A stretch of 40,505 nucleotides of DNA from Candidatus Kaiserbacteria bacterium RIFCSPHIGHO2_02_FULL_49_16. GTDB lineage: Bacteria; Patescibacteriota; Minisyncoccia; Phycocordibacterales; UBA2100. Location of the stretch: contig MFLD01000031.1 of assembly GCA_001781465.1 (NCBI GenBank), forward strand, positions 1-40,505, read 5' to 3'. The translations under genes and the position numbers were made by a program. Of this stretch, positions 1-40,304 are shown piece by piece (positions within the stretch are counted from its first letter, which is position 1; each line of letters begins with the position of its first letter). The notes beneath the pieces are model-generated. The model saw only the letters and a list, made by a program, of their open reading frames with translations. It had not been told where the DNA came from and made no database searches.

Positions 1-80
1 CCCGAAGCGTATCGCAGCTAAGCCGCGTCCTTCATCGCCCTTTAGAGTCAAGGCATCCACCGCACGCCCTTACTCAGAAC
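1..80 (-). rRNA. rrl: 23S rRNA, 5' terminal ~80 nt (gene runs off the left edge of the window)
   Basis: Reverse complement of 1-80 reads GTTCTGAGTAAGGGCGTGCGGTGGATGCCTTGACTCTAAAGGGCGATGAAGGACGCGGCTTAGCTGCGATACGCTTCGGG. This is the conserved bacterial 23S 5' region (GGTGGATGCCTTG ... GCGATGAAGGACG ... CTGCGATA). The 5' end is +-5 nt. No 16S or spacer tRNA within the 500 nt upstream. Confidence 0.85.
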
Positions 81-249
81 TCCCGTCAGGAATTCTGAGA
101 ACCGCGTGTTCTGCCCGCCACATTTTTAATGTGCCGGGACTTTTGTTGCCCATACTGTAGACGATACAGTATGAGTTCCTGCGTTGATGCGGTCTACACC
201 ACACCAACACTTTTGTTTGATTCTTTTGTCGTCAGCGCTCCGCGCGCCG

Positions 250-2339: not shown

Positions 2340-2990
2340 TCACTTAAGAACACCGGCTCGGTCGAGCAGAATCATGTTGGGGTAGTCCAAGATATCGCGA
2401 ATAAGGTGGTCTTGAATAGTAAGCCGATAGGAAAACTCCATGGTTCCAAATGTTGAATACCTTATTTCTCTCCCGTAGAGCGGTTCAAGCGATCTTATGG
2501 CATTTTCAAGGCGATTCTCGTTTAAATTATCGGCGACGACTATCAAATCCACAGGTCTAGTTACATCTCCCATAAAACATCCCGACGCTATAACGACGGA
2601 GAGACGGCCGGTATTTTTCAACACATCTAAAATATGATTGTATCGTATGGGAGAAATCTCGTGAACAAAAGAGGATAGGGCGCGCAGATACTTGAATTCC
2701 GGATCCAGAAACCAAGAATTTTCTTGTTTTGCGCCGTGACTTGTCTTTTTCCCGCGAGCACCTTTCCCCTTCTTTTTCGCTTGGACAACATCTTTTCCCC
2801 TCTTTATGATGCCCAATTTCTCCAGAATTTTAATTTCACGATTCGTTGATTGAGTGCTTAAGCCGGCGCGCTTGGCTAACTGAACAACTGTCAGAGGGTC
2901 CGACTTATCTGATTGATTGAATATGAATACGCGAACCAGCTTAGCTCTCGATTGATTGCCTAGAAATGCGACTAAAAAGTCCTCACCCAT
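2340..2990 (-). CDS. Winged-helix DNA-binding protein with an uncharacterised C-terminal domain
   Basis: 216-aa ORF with an ATG start. It has an N-terminal wHTH-like segment (LTVVQLAKRAGLSTQSTNREIKILEKLGIIKRGK), then a basic linker and a ~110-aa C-terminal domain. Confidence 0.6.
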   Translation of the reverse strand: MGEDFLVAFLGNQSRAKLVRVFIFNQSDKSDPLTVVQLAKRAGLSTQSTNREIKILEKLGIIKRGKDVVQAKKKGKGARGKKTSHGAKQENSWFLDPEFKYLRALSSFVHEISPIRYNHILDVLKNTGRLSVVIASGCFMGDVTRPVDLIVVADNLNENRLENAIRSLEPLYGREIRYSTFGTMEFSYRLTIQDHLIRDILDYPNMILLDRAGVLK

Positions 2991-4149: not shown

Positions 4150-4380
4150 CTTAGAGATTCTTAATGAGCGTAGCGAATTTAGAAGCTCTTAGACCCCTCC
4201 CCAATTTAGCATCACACAAACCAATCCCAATTTCTATATTCTGTCGAGACTGTCTCAACCAACATGCAAGATTATAACTTTGGAACGGATGCGAAATTGG
4301 TGAGGGGTAAGAAAACCCGCTGCTCATATTTTTTAACAAGGCACTCGAGAGTTTCGACCTCGGCAAGCCTGACAAGAACA

Positions 4381-6522: not shown

Positions 6523-6580
6523 AGAGACATGGCCGTTTAAGACGGAGGAATCACTCAAACCGTCTTAAACGGCCATGTCT
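6523..6580. repeat. Perfect 22-bp-stem hairpin (14-nt loop) in a divergent intergenic region
   Basis: GAGACATGGCCGTTTAAGACGG (6523-6544), loop aggaatcactcaaa, CCGTCTTAAACGGCCATGTCTC (6559-6580). Confidence 0.9.
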
Positions 6581-6672
6581 CCTCGCTGAAGATGGAAAAA
6601 GCGTAGTAAACGGGGAGAGTCACCCTTTCCACTTTTTCGCTGACTTTAGGATTGTGGTACTGTTGTGAACAT

Positions 6673-7036: not shown

Positions 7037-7676
7037 ATTTCTGCCCTCTCGTTTTCCAGGCGTTGATATTTTTGTGATTGCCGGAGAGGAGTACATTAGG
7101 TACTCGGTACTTTTTGCCTTTCCATACAAGAACTTCCGGGCGGGTATAGACCTCGGGGCTTGAGACGCGGGAGCGCTCTAGGGATTCGGCTTTTCCTAAA
7201 ACTCCGGGAATAAATCTCGCAACGGCGTCAATTACTGTTGCCGCCGGCAGTTCCCCGCCTGTTAAAACATACGGGCCGACAGAAACCGGCTTCGCCCGGA
7301 GGATTTTCTGCACGCGCGCGTCCACTCCCTCGTACCGCCCGCAAATAAGCAGAATGTTCCGTCTTTTGGATAATTTTTTCGCCGCTTTCTCGTCAAACTG
7401 AACTCCATCGGTAGAAAAAAATATCTTATCAAAACCGGTCTTTTTTCCGATGGCCTTTTGCGTTGCGCGCAACATCGCTTCCGGATCCAACACCATTCCC
7501 GGACCTCCGCCATACGGGCGCTGGTCTACTCTTTTGTGTTTCCCTACCGCAAATTTCTTCGGGTCATAAAATGAAATCTTGATTAATTTATCCTCTACAG
7601 CGCGCCCGAGAATCGAGCTCTTGATATACGGCTCGATCGATTCGGGGAATAACGTGATGATGTGAAAATGAAGCAT
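7035..7676 (-). CDS. trmD: tRNA (guanine37-N1)-methyltransferase
   Basis: 213 aa. MLHFHIITLFPESIEPYIKSSILGRA..., PYGGGPGMVL and GRYEGVDARV are classic TrmD motifs. Confidence 0.95.
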   Translation of the reverse strand: MLHFHIITLFPESIEPYIKSSILGRAVEDKLIKISFYDPKKFAVGKHKRVDQRPYGGGPGMVLDPEAMLRATQKAIGKKTGFDKIFFSTDGVQFDEKAAKKLSKRRNILLICGRYEGVDARVQKILRAKPVSVGPYVLTGGELPAATVIDAVARFIPGVLGKAESLERSRVSSPEVYTRPEVLVWKGKKYRVPNVLLSGNHKNINAWKTRGQK

Positions 7677-7769
7677 AGCTCGTAGCTTGTAGCTTGTAGC
7701 CAGAGAAATACGAAAGCAAGAAACGGAGCTTGGGTCTTTTGCTACAAGCTACTGGCTACCGGCTACTGG
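7677..7769. repeat. Inverted pair of GCTACAAGC-type word tracts forming a 12-bp stem
   Basis: GTAGCTTGTAGC (7689-7700) is the reverse complement of GCTACAAGCTAC (7741-7752). Tract B overlaps the 3' end and stop codon of the KH-domain gene. Confidence 0.75.
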
Positions 7770-20188: not shown

Positions 20189-20668
20189 TTAGCAGCAATC
20201 TTTCATTTTATTCTCAATTTCTTCGATTGATTCTTCGCGCGAGTCCGTTCTGCTGTTTGAGGATAGGAACAAAGTTGATATAAGAACGAGAAAAACAGTA
20301 ATCAGGATGAGCGCACTCCACAACTGCAACAGAGCGCTGTATGCGGCCGCGAAGCCGGCAGGAATGAAGAGAGCTTTCCAGAGAAGAAGCGCGTCGGACG
20401 ACCCGCGGAATTTTCTCTTCAACCCCGTTAGAGGCCATGCCTCTAACGGGGCAAGCTGGTACGCAATTCCAATCACAGTTCCGCCCATAAGAAGCGCGGG
20501 CACTATCAAATTAATTTGATAGCCCAGGAAATGCGTGATAAGAAGCCCCGTCCATGTGAGAAACACCCCGGCGCAAATCGGGCAAACTGCAAATGGCAGA
20601 AAGCGGTTCGCGAGCCACACTAGAGCAGTAATGGCGAGAATTGAGATTACAGTGACAGCAATTAGCAT
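20189..20668 (-). CDS. Multi-pass membrane protein with a CPIC (CxxC) motif, carrying an internal hairpin insertion
   Basis: The ORF track gives 20189..20704. The ATG at 20668 (MLIAVTV) starts 5 nt after the upstream stop. It has AVCPICAGVFLTW, and a C-terminal CC. Confidence 0.6.
   Translation of the reverse strand: MLIAVTVISILAITALVWLANRFLPFAVCPICAGVFLTWTGLLITHFLGYQINLIVPALLMGGTVIGIAYQLAPLEAWPLTGLKRKFRGSSDALLLWKALFIPAGFAAAYSALLQLWSALILITVFLVLISTLFLSSNSRTDSREESIEEIENKMKDCC
20423..20451. mobile_element. Copy E2: minimal CCCCGTTAGAGG hairpin inside the CxxC membrane protein gene
   Basis: CCCCGTTAGAGG (20423-20434), loop ccatg, CCTCTAACGGGG (20440-20451). It is flanked by CAA on both sides and encodes PLEAWPLTG in the host frame. 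Confidence 0.6.
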
Positions 20669-20672
20669 AATT

Positions 20673-21503
20673 TCAGATGAAGAGAATAAGCGCGCCGAGA
20701 GCAATCATCGCTATGCCCGCGATGAGGCGAACGCGAGAAAGGTTGTCCCGTTTCCATTCCTGCATTTTGTCTACCACGGTTTTATCGGCAGAGAACCACA
20801 GGACGAGAATGAGAGGAACGATGAGAACGAGATTGTACAGAAGGAGATACCAGAATCCCGCGAGGTATGTTTGGCTGTCGCGAAGAAGCCCGATGACCAT
20901 TAAGTACGGCCCTCCCATGCACGGGAATTGGCAGACGCCGACCAATGCGCCGAGCCCAAATGCCGCCAAGACGGATGTCCTCTCCAATAGCTTCGCCATC
21001 GGACGATGCGCGATTTCCGGCATTTTGAGTTTAATCGGAATGTCCGGAAAGAATCGGTTCAATAGATTCACGATGCCGAAAATTATGAGAAGCGATGCGC
21101 CGAGCTTTCCCATAAAATGGGGAGTGTTGAAGAGATGCAAGACCTTGAGAAGGCCGAGACCTATTAGGAAGTATGACGCGAAGATGCCAGCGATATATAC
21201 TCCGCCGATTTGCAGAATTTTCTCGCGCGTAAGCTGGAGCCCGAACAGGAACGCTATCGTGATGAGGAGAATCGAGAACGAACACGGATGCACGCTGTCC
21301 AAGAGCGACGATATGAGCACAAGCGGAAGAAGCCACGCCCCGCTCCCGCTCGCGTTCCAGATAAGCGTTGATGTTGCGGGACTGAATTTCAGAATAATAA
21401 TTCCGAGAATGAATGCTCCAATGACGCCGGCGATGATGATAATTCGACGCATCCCGTTAGAGACAGGTCGCGGTCGTGTATTGTCTTCAGGTAATGTGTT
21501 CAT
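20673..21503 (-). CDS. CcdA/DsbD-family thiol:disulfide transfer membrane protein
   Basis: 276 aa, multi-pass, with conserved Cys in TM segments (LDSVHPCSFSILL and VCQFPCMGGPYL). The first 17 codons are encoded by element E3. The ancestral ATG is probably at 21452. Confidence 0.7.
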   Translation of the reverse strand: MNTLPEDNTRPRPVSNGMRRIIIIAGVIGAFILGIIILKFSPATSTLIWNASGSGAWLLPLVLISSLLDSVHPCSFSILLITIAFLFGLQLTREKILQIGGVYIAGIFASYFLIGLGLLKVLHLFNTPHFMGKLGASLLIIFGIVNLLNRFFPDIPIKLKMPEIAHRPMAKLLERTSVLAAFGLGALVGVCQFPCMGGPYLMVIGLLRDSQTYLAGFWYLLLYNLVLIVPLILVLWFSADKTVVDKMQEWKRDNLSRVRLIAGIAMIALGALILFI

Positions 21504-21567
21504 AGAGAGTGGAAGAGTCTTATATGCAATCTCGGTTAAGGATTGAGCGACCGTGGTCTCTAACGGG
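21453..21567. mobile_element. Copy E3: 115-bp inverted-repeat element with a 6-bp target-site duplication at the ccdA-like start codon
   Basis: Arms CCCGTTAGAGAC (21453-21464) and GTCTCTAACGGG (21556-21567). The direct repeat ACGCAT flanks both ends (21447-21452 and 21568-21573). Confidence 0.75.
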
Positions 21568-21574
21568 ACGCATA

Positions 21575-22066
21575 TTATGGTGTTACAAGCGCCTTTATTT
21601 CAAGTTGAAGCGCGCCACCGGAAGAATCTGTGAGCTCCACGAATCTGTCAATCTGCCCTACGCCAGCCGGGCCGTGCGCGTTTGGGTCGTAGACGACGCG
21701 GATTGCACGGCTTTCTCTCGCTTTGATAACTTCATTTGCTGGCGGAATGTATCCCATGCCGGGCATTCCGAACGGTCCCTTAAGCTTGCCATCCGCGCGA
21801 ACGATGAAGGCGGCTGTGCACATGCAGGAAGTAACGACCGTGCGCACGGTTATGTCATCGCCGGTAGGATTGTTTATTGCGAACTCTTTGCTCACAAGGC
21901 CGTTTTTCATTGATATCGTACCGAAGTCGTACAGAATCTCCGGCGCGACGAGAGAACTTTTCGAGTTGTTAGTTTGCGCAGGCGCAATCGCTTGACTGAT
22001 TCGTCCCCATGACATGAGGCCAAGCCCGCCGACTAATATGGCTGCGCCGATTATTAGTGTTTTCAT
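21575..22066 (-). CDS. DUF1573 domain protein (exported)
   Basis: 163 aa with a signal/anchor helix. YDFGTISMKNGLVSKEFAINNPTGDDITV...TSCMCT is DUF1573-like. Confidence 0.7.
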   Translation of the reverse strand: MKTLIIGAAILVGGLGLMSWGRISQAIAPAQTNNSKSSLVAPEILYDFGTISMKNGLVSKEFAINNPTGDDITVRTVVTSCMCTAAFIVRADGKLKGPFGMPGMGYIPPANEVIKARESRAIRVVYDPNAHGPAGVGQIDRFVELTDSSGGALQLEIKALVTP

Positions 22067-22604: not shown

Positions 22605-22751
22605 TTAATCCTTTACAGCATGACTGATAATCTCCAAATTGCAACTTTTATGTTGCTTGCACCACGCTTCGTATTTTTTCATCCATGATTCTTCCTTGTA
22701 AATTAGACCGCACTCGCGACAGATATATTTTCCATTTTTTGATGTATTCAT
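22605..22751 (-). CDS. 48-aa Cys-rich (zinc-ribbon-like) peptide translationally coupled to copA, not in the ORF track
   Basis: The ATG at 22751-22749 overlaps the copA TGA (ATGA). MNTSKNGKYICRECGLIYKEESWMKKYEAWCKQHKSCNLEIISHAVKD has CxxC ... CxxHxxC. Its TAA ends at 22605, abutting the next ORF. Confidence 0.55.
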   Translation of the reverse strand: MNTSKNGKYICRECGLIYKEESWMKKYEAWCKQHKSCNLEIISHAVKD

Positions 22752-25081
22752 AGTCTTTTTGTCTTAAGCCGCAACGAATTTCCGACCACGCTTACACTGC
22801 TAAAGGCCATCGCAAGCCCTGCGAACACCGGCGAGAGAAGCCAGCCAAATACCGGATAGAAAATACCGCTCGCGAGCGGAATGCCTACAATGTTATATAT
22901 GAACGCCCAGAAAAGATTCTGCTTGATTCCGCGCATAGTTAATTTGGAAAGCCGTATGGCTTTCACCAATTTTGAAATGTCTCCGTGAAGAAGCGTGATG
23001 CCGGCGGATTCTATTGCGACATCCGTTCCCGTCGCCATCGCGATTCCGACATCCGCCTGCGCCAATGCCGGCGCATCGTTTACTCCGTCTCCCGCCATCG
23101 CGACGGTTAGCCCTTGCGCTTGAAATTCTTTTATTTTTCTCAACTTGTCTTCCGGCAGAACTTCTGCGACAACTTCGTCAATTCCAACTTGCCTTGCAAT
23201 AAATTGGGCGGTGTTGTTGTCGTCTCCTGTCAGCATTACTGTTTTAATTCCGAGCGCGTGCAAATTCGCCACCGCAGAAACCGCCTCGGGCTTCACTTGG
23301 TCCGCAATCATCGCAACTGCCAGCACTTTTTTATCTGAAACAAGAATGACCGGTGTTTTGCCTTCCCTCGTACCGTTCTCTAACTGCATACCAAGGTCTG
23401 ACCTTGGGGATTCGGATTTAAGGTCAGACCTTGGTATGCCTGTTGCACCAACCTCCCACGCGAATTTGGCGCTCCCAACGCGGTACTCTGCGCCTCCGAT
23501 GCTACCAACGATTCCTTTGCCTTTAACCATTTCAAATTCTTCCACGGGCAAAAGCGAGATGCCTTTTGCTTTCGCATACGAAACTACGGCATGCGCAATC
23601 GGATGCTCTGATTTATTTTCAAGCGACGCGAGAATCGCAATTATTTCCGCATCGCTTTTTTTAGATAGATTCTCGAGCGATACAAGTTCCGGTTTGCCTT
23701 TCGTAATCGTCCCCGTCTTGTCCATTATGACAACTCCTACTTTATGCAGTTTTTCAAGCGTCGCGGCATCTTTGACAAGTATTCCCTCTCTCGCCCCTTT
23801 GCCAACTCCCACGATAATCGCTGTCGGAGTGGCAAGCCCGAGCGCGCACGGACACGCAATCACGAGAATACCGACGAAGGAAACAAGCCCGAAAGAGAGC
23901 GCTTGCGAAAACCCAAGGTATTGAGTTCCTATTGCGAGCCACGCGCCAAGCGAAACGAATGCAATAACAAGCACTATAGGAACAAAAACACCAGATATTT
24001 TGTCCGCAAGCGCCTGAATCGGCGCTCGGCTTCCCTGCGCTTCTTCAACCATTTTCACAATATGAGCCAGCATAGTTTCGGAGCCGACTTTAGTCGCCTT
24101 AAATGTAAACGAGCCGGTCGTATTTATTGTCCCCGCGACAACCGTGCCGCCGATAGTCTTTTTAACCGGCATCGGCTCGCCCGTTATCATTGACTCGTCT
24201 ACATAAGACGAACCCTCTGTGAGTTCTCCGTCAACAGGAATTTTCCCAGCGGGCTTGACGATTATTAAGTCGCCGTGAACTACTTGGTCTACGGGGATTT
24301 CTGTTTCTTTCCCGAGGCGCACAACCAGCGCTGTTTTCGCCTGCAAGTTCAACAGTTTTTCTATCGCATCGCCCGTTTTCAATTTCGACTGCGCTTCAAG
24401 ATATTTTCCCAGCGCGATGAAAGTGATGACAATAATGGTGACATCGTAATAAGTATTCTCAACATTGATAAAAGGCCGGAGTGTTTCTTCAAAAGCGGTA
24501 ATCACAAAACTGTAAAGATATGCAGCGGAAGTTCCAATGCCTATAAGCGTGTCCATGTTCGCCTTGCCATAGCGGAGAAAGCGATAGAATCCAAGAAGGT
24601 AGGGCTTCCCGACAACGAATAGAACATATGTCGCCATAAGCGGAAGCAGATGATGGAAAAACTCTTTCCATAGATATGGAACGGCGGGCAAAATCCCGAA
24701 TTGAGCGGAGATTTCCCAACTCATTACAAATACGCTGAAAATGGCGAGCGGAACGGCGGAAAAAACTTTTGCGCGCATGTCTGCGATTCCCGCGAGCTTC
24801 TCCGTCTTTGATTGGTTGAGTCCGAGGTGCGCCGCGTGCTCGCTTCCTGTCATACTCATTGACGCCGCCGTCGGTTGAACGAAAGAATATCCAAGCGGTT
24901 TTATTTTTTCCGAAAGATGTTCCGGATTCGTTTTTGTTTCGTCGAACGAAATTCTCGCCGCTTCAGTTCCATAATTCACTTCGATTGAATGTACGCCATC
25001 AACTTTTTTGAGCGTCTTTTCAATAATTGCCGAGCACGACGCACAGTGCATTCCCTTTATTTTATATGTGTGTGATGCCAT
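22748..25081 (-). CDS. copA: Copper-translocating P1B-type ATPase
   Basis: 777 aa with one N-terminal HMA domain (GMHCASCSAIIE), the TM CPC motif (ACPCALGLATP), DKTGTIT and GDGVNDAP. Confidence 0.95.
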   Translation of the reverse strand: MASHTYKIKGMHCASCSAIIEKTLKKVDGVHSIEVNYGTEAARISFDETKTNPEHLSEKIKPLGYSFVQPTAASMSMTGSEHAAHLGLNQSKTEKLAGIADMRAKVFSAVPLAIFSVFVMSWEISAQFGILPAVPYLWKEFFHHLLPLMATYVLFVVGKPYLLGFYRFLRYGKANMDTLIGIGTSAAYLYSFVITAFEETLRPFINVENTYYDVTIIVITFIALGKYLEAQSKLKTGDAIEKLLNLQAKTALVVRLGKETEIPVDQVVHGDLIIVKPAGKIPVDGELTEGSSYVDESMITGEPMPVKKTIGGTVVAGTINTTGSFTFKATKVGSETMLAHIVKMVEEAQGSRAPIQALADKISGVFVPIVLVIAFVSLGAWLAIGTQYLGFSQALSFGLVSFVGILVIACPCALGLATPTAIIVGVGKGAREGILVKDAATLEKLHKVGVVIMDKTGTITKGKPELVSLENLSKKSDAEIIAILASLENKSEHPIAHAVVSYAKAKGISLLPVEEFEMVKGKGIVGSIGGAEYRVGSAKFAWEVGATGIPRSDLKSESPRSDLGMQLENGTREGKTPVILVSDKKVLAVAMIADQVKPEAVSAVANLHALGIKTVMLTGDDNNTAQFIARQVGIDEVVAEVLPEDKLRKIKEFQAQGLTVAMAGDGVNDAPALAQADVGIAMATGTDVAIESAGITLLHGDISKLVKAIRLSKLTMRGIKQNLFWAFIYNIVGIPLASGIFYPVFGWLLSPVFAGLAMAFSSVSVVGNSLRLKTKRL
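23386..23439. repeat. Perfect 20-bp-stem hairpin (14-nt loop) inside the copA coding sequence
   Basis: GCATACCAAGGTCTGACCTT (23386-23405), loop ggggattcggattt, AAGGTCAGACCTTGGTATGC (23420-23439). It encodes the internally repeated IPRSDLKSESPRSDLGM. Confidence 0.9.
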
Positions 25082-30347: not shown

Positions 30348-30436
30348 AGCGATACGTTTACAGTTGACAGTGAACAGTTAACAGCAAGAAACTACCCGAA
30401 TTCTCTGTAATCTGTAAACTGTAAACTTCATATCTT

Positions 30437-31062: not shown

Positions 31063-31857
31063 CTATTTGTAGGTATTCGTAGTATTCGTATCATTCGCAG
31101 ATTGGGACTTTGTCTTTCCTTTCTCGTATGCTTCCGCGATCGCATTCGCGACAAGTCGTATGCTTCGCACCGATGTATCGTTCGCGGGCACCGGATACTG
31201 CACTTGGGAAAAGTCGCAGTCGGAGCTGGAAAGGCCGATGACGGGAATGCCGAGCTGGTTCGCCTCGCGCACCGCTGTTTCCTCGCGCTTCGTGTCAACG
31301 ATGAAAAGCGCCGCCGGAAGTTCAAGCATCTTCACCAATCCGCCGAAGCGCGCGAGAAGCTCTGTGATTTCCCGGTCAATTAGCAGACGCTCTTTTTTCG
31401 TGTACTTCTCAAGCTCGCCCGAGTCGCGCTCGCTCATGTGCTTTTCCAATCGGTCAATGCGCTTGCGGATATTCTTAAAATTCGTGAGCGTGCCTCCTAT
31501 CCAGCGCCCGGCAACATAAGGTTCTCCTATGCGCGTGGCGACTTCTTTAACAATATCAACCGCTTCGTTCTTTCCGCCGACGAAGAGAAGCTGACGCGCA
31601 CCGCTCGCCTTTGCGCCTGTCTGCGGAGCCACAACGGCAGGAGTGTTTCCAGCGATAGAGCCCGCGAACGCGCATGCCGCTTCAAGCCGTCTCTGCGTTT
31701 CCTCAAGGTCAAAAATGTCGTTGCGGTCTTTGGTGCCAAAAATAAATGGCGAGGCCGTCGGATGGCGCCGCGTGCGCGAATAGCCAAAGTGCGCCCCCGC
31801 GTCAAATAGCGTTTTAATGTCTTGTGTTCCTGCCGTCACCCCATTAGAAGTTATCAT
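31063..31857 (-). CDS. rpsB: 30S ribosomal protein S2
   Basis: LFDAGAHFGYSRTRRHP, VGGKNEA and IVDTKREETAVREANQLGIPVIGL. The track start at 31896 is GTG. There is an ATG at 31857 (MITSNG) and an in-frame GTG at 31839. All three lie within or at the edge of element E5. Confidence 0.9.
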   Translation of the reverse strand: MITSNGVTAGTQDIKTLFDAGAHFGYSRTRRHPTASPFIFGTKDRNDIFDLEETQRRLEAACAFAGSIAGNTPAVVAPQTGAKASGARQLLFVGGKNEAVDIVKEVATRIGEPYVAGRWIGGTLTNFKNIRKRIDRLEKHMSERDSGELEKYTKKERLLIDREITELLARFGGLVKMLELPAALFIVDTKREETAVREANQLGIPVIGLSSSDCDFSQVQYPVPANDTSVRSIRLVANAIAEAYEKGKTKSQSANDTNTTNTYK

Positions 31858-31939
31858 GTTCGTGTATGTTATTTTCTTTGATTCTATAAGCACCACCTCG
31901 TCGCGCTAAAATCGCGTGTTTGCTGAACTTCAAACGGGG
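31839..31939. mobile_element. Copy E5: inverted-repeat element enclosing the rpsB start codon
   Basis: Arms CCCCATTAGAAGT (31839-31851) and ACTTCAAACGGGG (31927-31939) are 11/13 complementary. On the coding strand the arm reads ACT TCT AAT GGG (T S N G). Confidence 0.55.
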
Positions 31940-38059: not shown

Positions 38060-38169
38060 CCCCATTAGAAATCGCGGACGCGCATCGTCAAGAAATTGTA
38101 TGAACAGCAAACCAAAACAACATAATCGAGCTAAGAAACCAGCCAGTGCGCGTCCTATTTCTAACGGGG
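38060..38169. mobile_element. Copy E4: 110-bp inverted-repeat element inserted in codon 7 of leuC
   Basis: Arms CCCCATTAGAAAT (38060-38072) and ATTTCTAACGGGG (38157-38169). Its interior shares TCGCGG(A/T)CG(C/T)G(C/T)AT(C/T)GTC with E3. Removing 38060-38169 joins the ATG at 38041 in frame to ...GQTLYEKIWDAHVV. Confidence 0.75.
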
Positions 38170-39551
38170 CAGGCCAAACACTGTATGAAAAGATATGGGA
38201 TGCGCATGTAGTGCGCGAGGCCGCGGGTGAACCTACTATATTGTATATAGACCTGCACTTGATTCACGAGGTGACTACCCCGCAGGCGTTCACCGGATTG
38301 CGTAACCGCAAGTTGCCCGTTCGCCGGACAGACCTCACCATCGCGACCATGGACCACTCGGTGCCATCCGCCAATCGAAAGAAACTTCCGTGGCCCGATG
38401 TGATGGCGCAAAAACAAGTTGAGATGCTGGATGCCAACTGCAAAAAGCACGGCATCACTCTTTACGACCTTGGAAGCAAGCACCAGGGCATAGTGCATAT
38501 CATCGGACCAGAGCTTGGGCTCACTCAACCTGGCAAAACAATCGTGTGCGGAGACAGCCACACTTCCACTCACGGCGCGTTCGGAGCGCTGGCTTTCGGA
38601 ATTGGAACTTCGGAAGTGGAGCATGTTTTCGCCACGCAGTGCCTGCTTCAGAACAAAACAAAAACCATGGCAATTACAGTAAATGGCACTTTGCCGAAAG
38701 GAGTTTTCTCAAAAGACATAATCTTGAGAATCATAAATGAGATAGGAATAGGCGGAGGAACCGGCTACACATTTGAGTATCGCGGAAGCGCGATTCGCGC
38801 TTTGAGCATGGAGGCGCGCATGACCATCTGCAATATGTCTATTGAGGCGGGAGCGCGCGCGGGGATGGTTGCTCCAGACCAAACTACAGTTGACTACCTA
38901 GAGAAACGGGTAAAATTCGCAAGTGCCGAAGAAAGAGAGCGCGTGAAAGCATCGTGGCTGAAATGGAAATCGGACGAAGGCGCGATGTTCGATAAAGAAG
39001 TAATTATTGATGCGGATACAATCGAACCAATGGTTACTTGGGGAACAAATCCGGGAATGTCCGTAGGAATAACTCAAAAAATCCCAAAGGCCGAGAGCGA
39101 GGATGTAAAGAAAGCCCTCGAATATATGGGCTTGCAAGGAGGACAGAAGATGGCCGGCCAGCCGATACAATTCGTATTCATCGGGAGTTGCACGAATTCC
39201 CGTATCGAAGACTTGCGTATCGCTTCCAAAATAATGAATGGTAAGAAAATCGCCAAAGGCGTTACCGCTTATGTAGTGCCGGGTTCTCAAGAAGTGAAAA
39301 GCGAAGCGGAATCCGAAGGGTTGGACAAAGTGTTTTTGTCCGCGGGTTGCGAGTGGCGAGAGCCAGGGTGCAGTATGTGCATCGGAATGAATGGCGACTT
39401 GGTGCCATCGGGAAAATATTGCGCGTCTACCTCAAACAGAAATTTCATCGGCCGGCAAGGGCGAGGCGCGCGCACGCTTCTTATGTCCCCCGCGATGGCG
39501 GCAGTCGCGGCCATTGAAGGAACCGTCGGCGACGCGCGAAAATTCGTATGA
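38100..39551 (+). CDS. leuC: 3-isopropylmalate dehydratase large subunit
   Basis: TLYEKIWDAHVV..., DLHLIHEVTTPQAF, GDSHTSTHGAFGALAFGIGTSE and CSMCIGMNGD. The present ATG (38100) and the first 23 codons lie inside element E4. Confidence 0.93.
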   Translation: MNSKPKQHNRAKKPASARPISNGAGQTLYEKIWDAHVVREAAGEPTILYIDLHLIHEVTTPQAFTGLRNRKLPVRRTDLTIATMDHSVPSANRKKLPWPDVMAQKQVEMLDANCKKHGITLYDLGSKHQGIVHIIGPELGLTQPGKTIVCGDSHTSTHGAFGALAFGIGTSEVEHVFATQCLLQNKTKTMAITVNGTLPKGVFSKDIILRIINEIGIGGGTGYTFEYRGSAIRALSMEARMTICNMSIEAGARAGMVAPDQTTVDYLEKRVKFASAEERERVKASWLKWKSDEGAMFDKEVIIDADTIEPMVTWGTNPGMSVGITQKIPKAESEDVKKALEYMGLQGGQKMAGQPIQFVFIGSCTNSRIEDLRIASKIMNGKKIAKGVTAYVVPGSQEVKSEAESEGLDKVFLSAGCEWREPGCSMCIGMNGDLVPSGKYCASTSNRNFIGRQGRGARTLLMSPAMAAVAAIEGTVGDARKFV

Positions 39552-39694
39552 CCCGGTAGTGCAATGTGCCTTAGGCTTAAACAAATTATGAAAATAAATC
39601 ACGAACACATCAAAATCAAATCTATCGAAAGTTTACCATTCACGCCGCGCCAAACGCCGTGCATTTGGCGCAAAGGCACATTCTACTAACCGGG
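39552..39694. mobile_element. Copy E6 (divergent): 143-bp inverted-repeat-bounded insert filling the leuC-leuD spacer
   Basis: Arms CCCGGTAGTGCAATGTGCCTT (39552-39572) and AAGGCACATTCTACTAACCGGG (39673-39694) match 19/21 with a 1-nt gap. An inner stem GCGCCAAA/TTTGGCGC is present. The arm tip CCCGGTTAG resembles CCCCGTTAG. Confidence 0.55.
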
Positions 39695-39695
39695 T

Positions 39696-40304
39696 ATGAA
39701 AATCACTCAATTCAAAAACTTAAGCTCGTCTTTAATGCCCTTGCACAGGGATGATGTTGATACCGACCAAATTATTCCCGCCCGCTTCTTGACAGCCACA
39801 GACAAAAAGGGATTCGGCGAACATTTGTTTATGGACTTGCGATTTGAGGAAGATGGAGTCACTCCAAAACCAGATTTCGTTCTGAACCAGAAGCAATACA
39901 AAAACGCGAAAATCCTGCTTGCTCACGAAAATTTCGGCTGCGGTTCTTCCCGCGAACACGCCCCGTGGGCGCTTTTGGGCTATGGCTTTAATGCGGTTAT
40001 CGCAATTTCTTTCGCCGACATTTTCAGGAACAACTCTGCAAAAAATGGATTGCTCGTCGTAGAATTGCCGCGCGATGTGATAGACATGATGCACGCCGAT
40101 GTGCTCAAAGACCCGAAAGAAAAAGCTACGATTAATTTGGAGCAACAAACGAGCATATGGAAAGGAAAAGCGTATAATTTTCCGATAAATCCGTTTGTTA
40201 AAAAGTGCATGCTGGAAGGGCTTGATGACATCGGCTACACGATGAGTTTTGCCGACCAAATCAGCGTGTATGAAAAACGACGAGATAGTGTTAACGCCAC
40301 ATAA
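39696..40304 (+). CDS. leuD: 3-isopropylmalate dehydratase small subunit
   Basis: 202 aa with [14 protein letters not shown] and [16 protein letters not shown]. Confidence 0.93.

Follow-up and report, generated by a model that had tools for sequence, protein, structure and literature searches.

A small inverted-repeat element inserted at the ccdA start codon of a Kaiserbacteria strain belongs to a family often found at bacterial start codons

The DNA analysed here is a stretch of 40,505 nt from Candidatus Kaiserbacteria bacterium RIFCSPHIGHO2_02_FULL_49_16 (contig MFLD01000031.1), referred to throughout as the window, in which a gene for a DUF1573 protein is followed on the minus strand by a ccdA-like gene. 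A preliminary description made from the sequence alone had proposed that a transposon-like element with terminal inverted repeats (TIRs) and a target-site duplication lies exactly at the start codon of the ccdA-like gene. We found that this core reading is supported by empty sites in relatives. The features of the junction, in the direction of transcription, are as follows.

21575 to 22066, minus strand: DUF1573 gene, upstream; its stop codon TAA (21577-21575) is 1 nt from the ancestral ccdA start.
21520 to 21573, minus strand: 17-codon open reading frame (ORF) and its stop, opened by the upstream ATG (21573-21571); the TAA, at 21522-21520, is 16 nt before the internal ATG.
21569 to 21572: copy 2 of the target-site duplication, CGCA; with the original A (complement of 21573) it gives the upstream ATG, 1 nt past the DUF1573 stop.
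21452 to 21568, minus strand: the element (ccdA copy), 117 nt, counting its terminal bases T (21452) and A (21568).
21556 to 21568: gene-distal 13-bp arm, GTCTCTAACGGGA, a perfect complement of the proximal arm.
21453 to 21503, minus strand: element-encoded in-frame extension, MNTLPEDNTRPRPVSNG, running from the internal ATG at 21503 to the native ATG (21452-21450).
21452 to 21464: gene-proximal 13-bp arm, TCCCGTTAGAGAC, followed inward by AGG, the family orientation mark.
21448 to 21451: copy 1 of the target-site duplication, CGCA (coding strand TGCG); the ATG that is the present native ccdA start is formed from this copy and the terminal base of the element.
20673 to 21452, minus strand: ccdA-like gene (DsbD_TM/SfLAP-type membrane protein; the profile match is weak), 259 aa from the native ATG.

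The element is in the sense orientation relative to ccdA, with the end that reads CCT-RYY-TCTAACGGG adjoining the gene, and gene callers take its internal ATG, which gives a 276-aa product. A stable fold is predicted on both strands (z = -6.4 against shuffles for the RNA of the coding strand), and no run of T follows the stem. Arms of 12 bp bounding a 115-bp element had been proposed; the inner arms CCCGTTAGAGAC (21453-21464) and GTCTCTAACGGG (21556-21567) are both present as claimed, but the family statistics given below extend the arms to 13 bp and the element to 117 nt. The upstream ATGCGT placed 1 nt after the DUF1573 stop, the 17-codon ORF and the in-frame internal ATG at 21503 were all found at the positions originally given. 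With up to 2 mismatches allowed, the arm motif has six matches in the window against 2.2 expected, a number that was reached in 0 of 100 shuffles.

Five relatives (CcdA 87-91% identical; loci L134-L138) have the TAA of DUF1573, 1 nt and then a single ATGCGN or ATGAAG, with the element absent, and it can be seen that the window junction is this uninterrupted junction (TAAtATGCGN) split by the element. Nearly all ccdA-like homologues (78-91% identity, several named Candidatus Kaiserbacteria) are 259 aa long, and a 276-aa form occurs only in the cluster of the window strain. The suggestion that the two genes were tightly coupled before insertion is borne out by the single start 1 nt after the DUF1573 stop in element-free relatives, and ATGCGT was indeed the ancestral ccdA start, since the 259-aa proteins of relatives begin there. 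The question had also been raised whether the repeat is conserved at ccdA starts that lack the element. It is not: the relatives carry one copy only, so that ccdA starts as such do not have a conserved flanking repeat. An identical DUF1573 protein is encoded by ten contigs from different samples, which are base-for-base identical at the junction and all have the element; being mutually identical contigs of the same strain, they are uninformative on the empty site. We conclude that the element is inserted exactly at the ccdA start codon, between coupled DUF1573 and ccdA genes.

Elements with the same ends were sought in one genome per species with the pattern CCCGTTAGA-N(80-110)-TCTAACGGG, which matched at least 120 genome stretches. 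From the matches listed in other genomes we took 127 unique copies with flanks, on which the family counts below rest. Because the scan required fixed cores of 9 nt and a size of 98-128 nt, divergent relatives (for example copies C and D of the window, see below) and the distribution of sizes are under-sampled; taxonomy is as given in the database record names, and gene starts were called mechanically from ORFs. Among the matches listed, 76 are from the Candidate Phyla Radiation (CPR)/Patescibacteria, in many classes, 33 are from other phylum-level groups and 11 are unclassified. The 33 fall into seven or more groups, including Omnitrophota, Planctomycetota, Deltaproteobacteria/Desulfobacterota, Edwardsbacteria, Stahlbacteria, Spirochaetia and Elusimicrobia. 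The proposal that several elements of the window belong to one family stands, and the family extends beyond this bin, over many phyla, with a systematic relation to start codons. A scan of viral contigs gave three loci, none of them convincing: two IMG/VR contigs (L011 6554-6671 and L013 8692-8809) share the same 118-nt sequence with 12-nt CCCGTTAGAACG arms and have neither complementary terminal bases nor matching flanks, and the other locus is chance-like.

The family ends are YCCCGTTAGARRY, with 13-bp arms. When the two flanks of each copy were compared in a 6-nt register, positions 2-5 were identical in 77-83% of copies, position 1 in 53% and position 6 in 43%, and registers other than the 4-bp one gave 3-41% identity. 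In 122/127 copies the base next to CCCG on its outer side is complementary to the one next to CGGG (T..A in 65, C..G in 55). Taken together, these two patterns define the ends as YCCCGTTAGA...TCTAACGGGR and the duplication as 4 bp. Its consensus is T-N-N-A (T in 103/127, A in 97/127), with TGAA (34), TAAA (16), TGGA (11) and TGAG (9) as the commonest tetramers, and the outer target base is often the same as the terminal base of the element (44 copies with T..A ends have A there, and 22 with C..G ends have G). In six C..G-ended copies at gene starts the upstream copy reads ATG and the gene itself begins with GTG, which implies that TG was duplicated and that one base came from the element; a 6-bp duplication predicts otherwise. 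The 6-bp model is ruled out by these cases together with the position-wise flank identity. The preliminary description had reported a 6-bp duplication at ccdA: ACGCAT does stand at both 21447-21452 and 21568-21573, but the true duplication is the 4-bp CGCA, and it appears longer because the outer bases of the target were A and T, the preferred context, which match the element's terminal bases. The A of the present ccdA ATG is the complement of the terminal T of the element. Flanking duplications at other copies, also anticipated, are likewise real but not 6 bp long.

Copies range from 27 to 143 nt, with an interior of 3 to about 115 nt in which the only ORFs are short leader peptides. Arms-only copies (27-46 nt) with matching flanks are present in other genomes, and one lies in the window (copy H). 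Pairs of copies from the same genome can be homologous from end to end (0.73 for the L068 pair, 0.71 for the L036 pair). An 18-nt block common to the ccdA copy and the copy at leuC had been noted; it is real but lies in the arm and sub-terminal region, and the similarity between the central interiors of the two is not significant (identity 0.60; null 0.55 +/- 0.03). Two loci carry tandem arrays whose members are separated only by a regenerated hexamer, ATGAAT or ATTCAT (L042 5899-6278, three different members; L046 7674-7895, two), and these indicate repeated insertion into one site.

Sixty-five of the 127 copies stand at zero offset from the start codon (ATG or GTG) of an ORF 80 codons or longer. 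The arm marked by AGG or AGA is gene-proximal in 37 of the start copies and distal in 4. A typical gene-proximal end reads ...ACGG-[stem]-CCT-RYY-TCTAACGGG, and a sub-terminal stem is found at this end in 58/65 (26 pair with the extension of the opposite arm, 32 form a local hairpin); in-register pairing of the arms themselves ends at position 13. T..A-ended copies are at starts in 56/65 cases and C..G-ended copies in 7/55 (Fisher p = 1e-16), the terminal base rebuilding the start as ATG in the former and as GTG in the latter. The same loci contain 1,267 unoccupied ATGAAT, ATGGAT or ATGAGT sites, of which 5% are first start codons and 11% are non-coding, the remainder being in genes. For occupied sites of these three kinds, 41/45 are at starts, compared with 31% expected if all in-gene insertions had been purged (p = 5e-17). 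Insertion is thus directed to starts, or else copies that lie at starts are retained in preference to others; the tandem arrays argue for a real target preference.

Family copies are also found on stop codons, between genes and within coding sequence. In 18/127 copies the duplication begins with the three bases of a stop codon that closes a long upstream ORF, and 13 of these are ATGA-type stop/start overlaps. Targeting of stop codons, considered for copies flanked by gTAAAc, was rejected as a rule, being true of this minority only, mostly TGA at ATGA-type overlaps. At 7/54 occupied starts (13%) and at 31/566 ordinary starts (5.5%; p = 0.04) a -10-like box, TAnnnT, lies with its end 6 nt ahead of the upstream ATG; examples are found at L024, L026, L056, L066 and L132. 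Some host genes look leaderless, which would place the element at the transcription start. As a general explanation, however, targeting of leaderless promoters is weakly supported by these figures.

The conserved end has no Shine-Dalgarno motif, and in these genomes tetramers resembling one are rare before starts of either kind, occupied or ordinary. Read from the duplicated upstream ATG, the frame has no stop through the interior in 20/54 copies, compared with 5-9 for five control frames and 5.0 +/- 2.1 for shuffled interiors (maximum 12 in 500). Where it is open, the leader ends on a TAA inside TCTAACGGG, 4 nt before the gene ATG, or on a TGA that overlaps this ATG. The commonest length class is that with a remainder of 1 on division by 3 (33/65), in which the leader ends on the terminal TAA, and the class that would fuse the leader in frame to the gene is the rarest, its frame never being open. 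Judged from sequence, the open leader frame suggests termination-reinitiation feeding the host gene. Variant leader arrangements are seen in the window, at the leuC copy, the leuC/leuD copy and the ccdA copy.

The family has TIRs, a fixed-length target duplication, a small size with no transposase gene, and dispersed copies with filled and empty sites, as is characteristic of miniature inverted-repeat transposable elements, or MITEs. We regard insertion, duplication, the family rules, start-codon residence and orientation bias as established by the observations above. The best explanation, to which we give a probability of roughly 0.8, is a non-autonomous DNA transposon of the MITE type that makes a 4-bp T-N-N-A duplication, with the start rebuilt by its terminal base and the host gene expressed through reinitiation. 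Transposition would involve a staggered 4-bp cut at T-N-N-A-like sites, A|TGNA|T being preferred, so that the TG of a start codon would be duplicated and the terminal base of the element would rebuild the start on the gene side (A giving ATG, G giving GTG). In the Kaiserbacteria strain the element landed between the DUF1573 stop and the ccdA ATG. Ribosomes ending at the DUF1573 stop could begin again at the duplicated ATG upstream, 1 nt away, open the hairpin as they translate the short ORF, and then terminate and re-initiate downstream. For the ccdA copy re-initiation might take place either at the native ATG or at the internal in-frame ATG, 16 nt past the stop, which would yield CcdA with 17 additional residues. 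Many other copies have a leader that would reach the TAA of the terminal repeat, 4 nt before the gene ATG, or an ATGA overlap. The element may be tolerated, and perhaps retained, because translation of the interrupted gene is preserved. It is presumably mobilised by a DDE-type transposase whose gene lies elsewhere. DDE transposases leave just such a combination: a short duplication of fixed length, short TIRs that match perfectly and a target consensus that is roughly palindromic.

A number of observations weigh against this explanation. Searches of about 0.85 Mb of flanking DNA and of the window, in which the scans of the collection covered ends up to 600 nt apart, gave no autonomous element with these ends, and every long pair of family ends with a duplication in the flanks turned out to be two neighbouring short copies. 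Clustering of 668 ORFs from 120 loci gave housekeeping families only, with no recurrent transposase, recombinase or HUH enzyme; Pfam and NCBIfam scans of the window ORFs, several of which are without annotation, found no transposase, recombinase or integrase. The arms co-vary: positions outside the search pattern (0, 10, 11 and 12) are Watson-Crick paired in 115-122/127 copies, compared with 54-62 under independent assortment, and the 24 triplets seen at positions 10-12 are exactly mirrored in 107/127. Simple binding of a transposase to the ends does not predict mirrored arms, and together with the lack of a transposase partner this makes other mobilisation mechanisms possible. The central interiors are near the shuffled null (best neighbour identity 0.76 vs 0.55 +/- 0.03), and such barely related interiors are unusual for a recently amplified MITE family; interior homology was for this reason dismissed as a family criterion, the family being defined by arms and sub-terminal features. 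About 10% of copies, including copies B, D and H of the window, are without a clean 4-bp duplication, and there is a class with C[CT]TG[CT] just outside one end and 2-3 nt of flank identity (B, D and H; L051, L062, L064, L072, L081, L086, L120 and L130). The leader of the ccdA copy stops early, 67 nt before the native ATG, so that the coupling route would be less direct there than in copies with an open frame. Finally, the exact empty allele of the window strain was not found in JGI metagenomes, a weak negative as presence of the filled allele in them is unconfirmed, and there is thus no sign of current mobility.

A bolder account, which we offer tentatively, is that these are mobile leaders that seek start codons and form a class of hairpin element not recognised before. 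They would target translation or transcription starts (partly leaderless promoters), rebuild the start and impose termination-reinitiation by means of a leader with its stop in the terminal repeat; the arms would be kept by a hairpin-dependent mechanism acting on single-stranded DNA or RNA, not by the usual binding of a transposase to the ends, and the spread of the family over CPR and other groundwater phyla would depend on an enzyme of a kind not yet recognised. Somewhat less probable again is that the element is a mobile translation-control module useful to the host and only secondarily selfish, its hairpin, leader and stem having been selected to regulate initiation (for instance by upstream translation, temperature or ribosome supply). 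Such a module would fit the fixed orientation to the gene (37 vs 4), a leader frame open far above controls, the stem in 58/65 start copies, arm complementarity kept despite sequence change, retention of the leuC copy between species that are 82% identical, and an occupation of starts about threefold above that predicted by purging of in-gene insertions. All of these signals are, however, equally expected of a selfish element filtered for harmlessness. Moreover, the copies at ccdA, rpsB and the small-membrane-protein gene are strain-specific and close relatives thrive without them, copies also lie at stop codons, within coding sequence and between genes, and those with C..G ends are mostly away from starts.

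We consider it improbable that the copies arose by site-specific recombination of an excised circle or by the action of an enzyme that depends on hairpin DNA, with the flanking repeat a crossover core and not a repair duplication. The abutted ends in tandem arrays (TCTAACGGG-ATGAAT-CCCGTTAGA; L042, L046) do form a recombinase-like palindromic site of 13-6-13 layout, the outer target bases tend to match the terminal bases (A with T..A 44; G with C..G 22), a small number of hexamers are used as targets repeatedly, and arm co-variation suggests a folded single-stranded substrate. On the other hand, no recombinase or HUH enzyme recurs near the copies and the two central target positions are diverse, and a terminal base that is complementary in 122/127, with outer flank identity of 43-53%, fits a 4-bp staggered-cut duplication directly. 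Hairpin-dependent systems such as IS200/IS605 and REP/RAYT are not known to leave a duplication, which also counts against this idea. An ordinary local hairpin, that is a terminator or attenuator between DUF1573 and ccdA with a coincidental ACGCAT repeat, would have the stable fold on both strands and the intergenic position in its favour, but it can be practically dismissed: the junction has no spacer in relatives, so that the empty sites already refute it, the stem has no T-run after it, and the same ends recur with matching flanks, six times within the window and 120 times or more in other genomes.

Six family copies lie in the 40.5 kb of the window, namely the ccdA copy and the following five.

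2210 to 2338: copy A, 129 nt, C..G ends; TTCA is duplicated at 2206-2209 and 2339-2342.
20423 to 20451, minus strand: copy H, an arms-only 29-nt hairpin, absent from 4 relatives.
31839 to 31939, minus strand: copy D, 101 nt, its ends diverged, at the start of the gene for ribosomal protein S2.
38060 to 38169, plus strand: copy B, at the 5' end of leuC; also in L140, absent from L139 and L141.
39552 to 39694, plus strand: copy C, related but divergent, its ends CCCGGTAGTG.../...CTACTAACCGGG, where leuC and leuD overlap.

Empty orthologous sites were found for the ccdA copy and for copies H, B and D. On the gene strand the duplication of copy A is TGAA, within which lies the stop codon of a MarR-like gene (2340-2990, minus strand). 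Copy H together with its flank makes a 33-nt in-frame insertion that adds 11 residues (APLEAWPLTGL) to a small membrane protein, and its direct repeat is TTG though the total insertion is 33 nt. S2 receives the new N-terminus MITSNG- from copy D, where the element-free relative L139 reads MMTAVTQDIK. Copy B lies about 6 codons inside the ancestral leuC coding sequence, with no clean duplication, and supplies the LeuC N-terminus MNSKPKQHNRAKKPASARPISNG in place of the earlier one. A 20-codon ORF now starts at the ancestral ATG (38041) and ends on a TGA (38101-38103) that overlaps the new ATG (38100). As this copy is shared with another species (LeuC 82% identical), it is an older insertion. Copy C has duplicated TATGA (39547-39551 and 39695-39699), so that leuC retains its TGA and leuD its ATG, and the ORF inside it has a TAA 6 nt before the leuD ATG. 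The leuC/leuD junction of relatives holds different, unrelated palindromic fillers of 96-168 nt (L139 3902-3997, L140 1585-1752, L141 3959-4095), and this junction is a hot spot for hairpin elements.

Further palindromes were noted in the window. A perfect hairpin with 20-nt arms at 23386-23439 forms an in-frame insertion of about 16 residues (PRSDLKSESPRSDLGM) in a copA-like gene (22748-25081, minus strand) and is absent from three relatives; its arms are unrelated to the CCCGTTAGA family, so that a second kind of palindromic element is tolerated in coding sequence of this strain. A 114-nt hairpin element at 4194-4307, with arms CCCCTCCCCAATTT / AAATTGGTGAGGGG and flanks TTAGAC / GTAAGA, may represent a sister MITE family. 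Strong inverted repeats lie at 6524-6581, 7676-7765 and 30356-30426, comprising a perfect hairpin with 22-nt arms (GAGACATGGCCGTTTAAGACGG) and two repeat-rich palindromes built of TAGCTTGTAGC and GTTTACAGT units. Positions 1-83 (minus strand) match the first 82 positions of bacterial 23S rRNA (E = 6e-10), the match being cut off by the edge of the window, and the window thus begins inside an rRNA gene.

CPR/Patescibacteria have tiny, gene-dense genomes that are thought to be poor in mobile elements. The window has one copy per 7 kb, and essential genes, those for ribosomal protein S2 and LeuC/LeuD, are among the genes touched. Should the family rules hold, gene callers would systematically mis-start or over-extend proteins in thousands of metagenome-assembled genomes, as with CcdA (276 vs 259 aa) and the N-termini of LeuC and S2, and YCCCGTTAGARRY with its 4-bp duplication would serve as a marker of recent genome change and of horizontal exchange among co-resident groundwater phyla. 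The family would also amount to a natural experiment in translation initiation by bacteria without strong Shine-Dalgarno usage, in which hundreds of genes still work with a stable hairpin and a mini-ORF between their start signals and coding sequence. Given the co-variation of the arms and the lack of a transposase in our searches, the mobilisation mechanism is worth finding.

Rfam 15 gave no match on the elements, either at the gathering threshold or with E up to 1, and full-text literature searches that included the end sequences found no description of the family, the matches being primers and unrelated papers; it is apparently undescribed. Bacterial MITEs with TIRs, target duplications, RNA stem-loops and host-ORF fusions, and repeats that carry start signals, have been reviewed (PMC3184786). 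The present family resembles the MITEs among them (Correia/CREE of Neisseria, RUP of pneumococcus, ERIC and Nezha) in its size of about 100-150 nt, TIRs, duplication, lack of a transposase gene and many copies, and also in having filled and empty orthologous sites, a long stem-loop transcript and element ORFs joined to host genes at either end (5' or 3') or in the interior (PMC3184786). It differs in its ends and in its 4-bp T-N-N-A duplication; moreover, only the 13-bp arm and a short sub-terminal feature are conserved, the interior being almost free and arms-only copies of 27-29 nt occurring. Correia and RUP duplicate TA, and Correia has a family-specific 26-bp TIR. An assignment to the Correia/IS630 type was rejected on the 4-bp duplication (mostly TGAA, TAAA and TGGA) and on the ends YCCCGTTAGARRY. 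Further differences from these MITEs are the spread over CPR and at least seven other phylum-level groups, not one genus, and the placement of half of the copies at zero offset on a start that is rebuilt, in fixed orientation and with a leader frame statistically kept open.

Rickettsia palindromic elements (RPE) are likewise palindromes of about 105-146 nt found in frame within genes of a reduced genome (PMC3184786), comparable with copy H and with the LeuC, S2 and CcdA fusions. Compared by description, however, RPE are confined to Rickettsia and reside in frame in ORFs with no start-codon placement, and the TIR and duplication signature and the CCCGTTAGA ends belong to the present family and not to RPE. 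The REP2 repeats of Neisseria and IR repeats of Borrelia, which supply promoter, ribosome-binding site and ATG (PMC3184786), share with it a position directly upstream of genes and the provision of start signals. Those repeats bring their own ribosome-binding site and ATG, whereas here the start comes from the target duplication and one terminal base, the conserved end is without a Shine-Dalgarno motif and expression appears, from the sequence arrangement, to depend on translation from the upstream duplicate. REP/REPIN elements are mobilised by RAYT, with a RAYT gene in the genome, and have arms that are each a short REP palindrome with a conserved 5' tetranucleotide and no target duplication. 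They were rejected because the arms of the present family are not self-palindromic, a duplication is present and no HUH- or RAYT-like ORF recurs in the flanks or window.

Integron attC sites are also imperfect hairpins (57-141 nt) in which complementarity is conserved over sequence, with a variable centre and an asymmetric bulge, and their cores GTTRRRY / RYYYAAC are similar to GTTAGAR / YTCTAAC of the present family. The polarity of attC is R''(RYYYAAC)...R'(GTTRRRY), and attC sites stand in cassette arrays with an intI integrase next to them. The polarity is reversed here (GTTAGA 5', TCTAAC 3'), the copies lie between housekeeping genes (leuC/leuD, rpsB) and not in cassette arrays, and no integrase is nearby, so that attC was rejected; the present copies, unlike attC, are flanked by 4-bp duplications at many unrelated sites. 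We conclude that the general kind of element is known, and that what appears to be new is the combination of these ends with the 4-bp rule, the breadth of phyla, the zero-offset residence at starts with a rebuilt start codon, the orientation rule and the leader signature.

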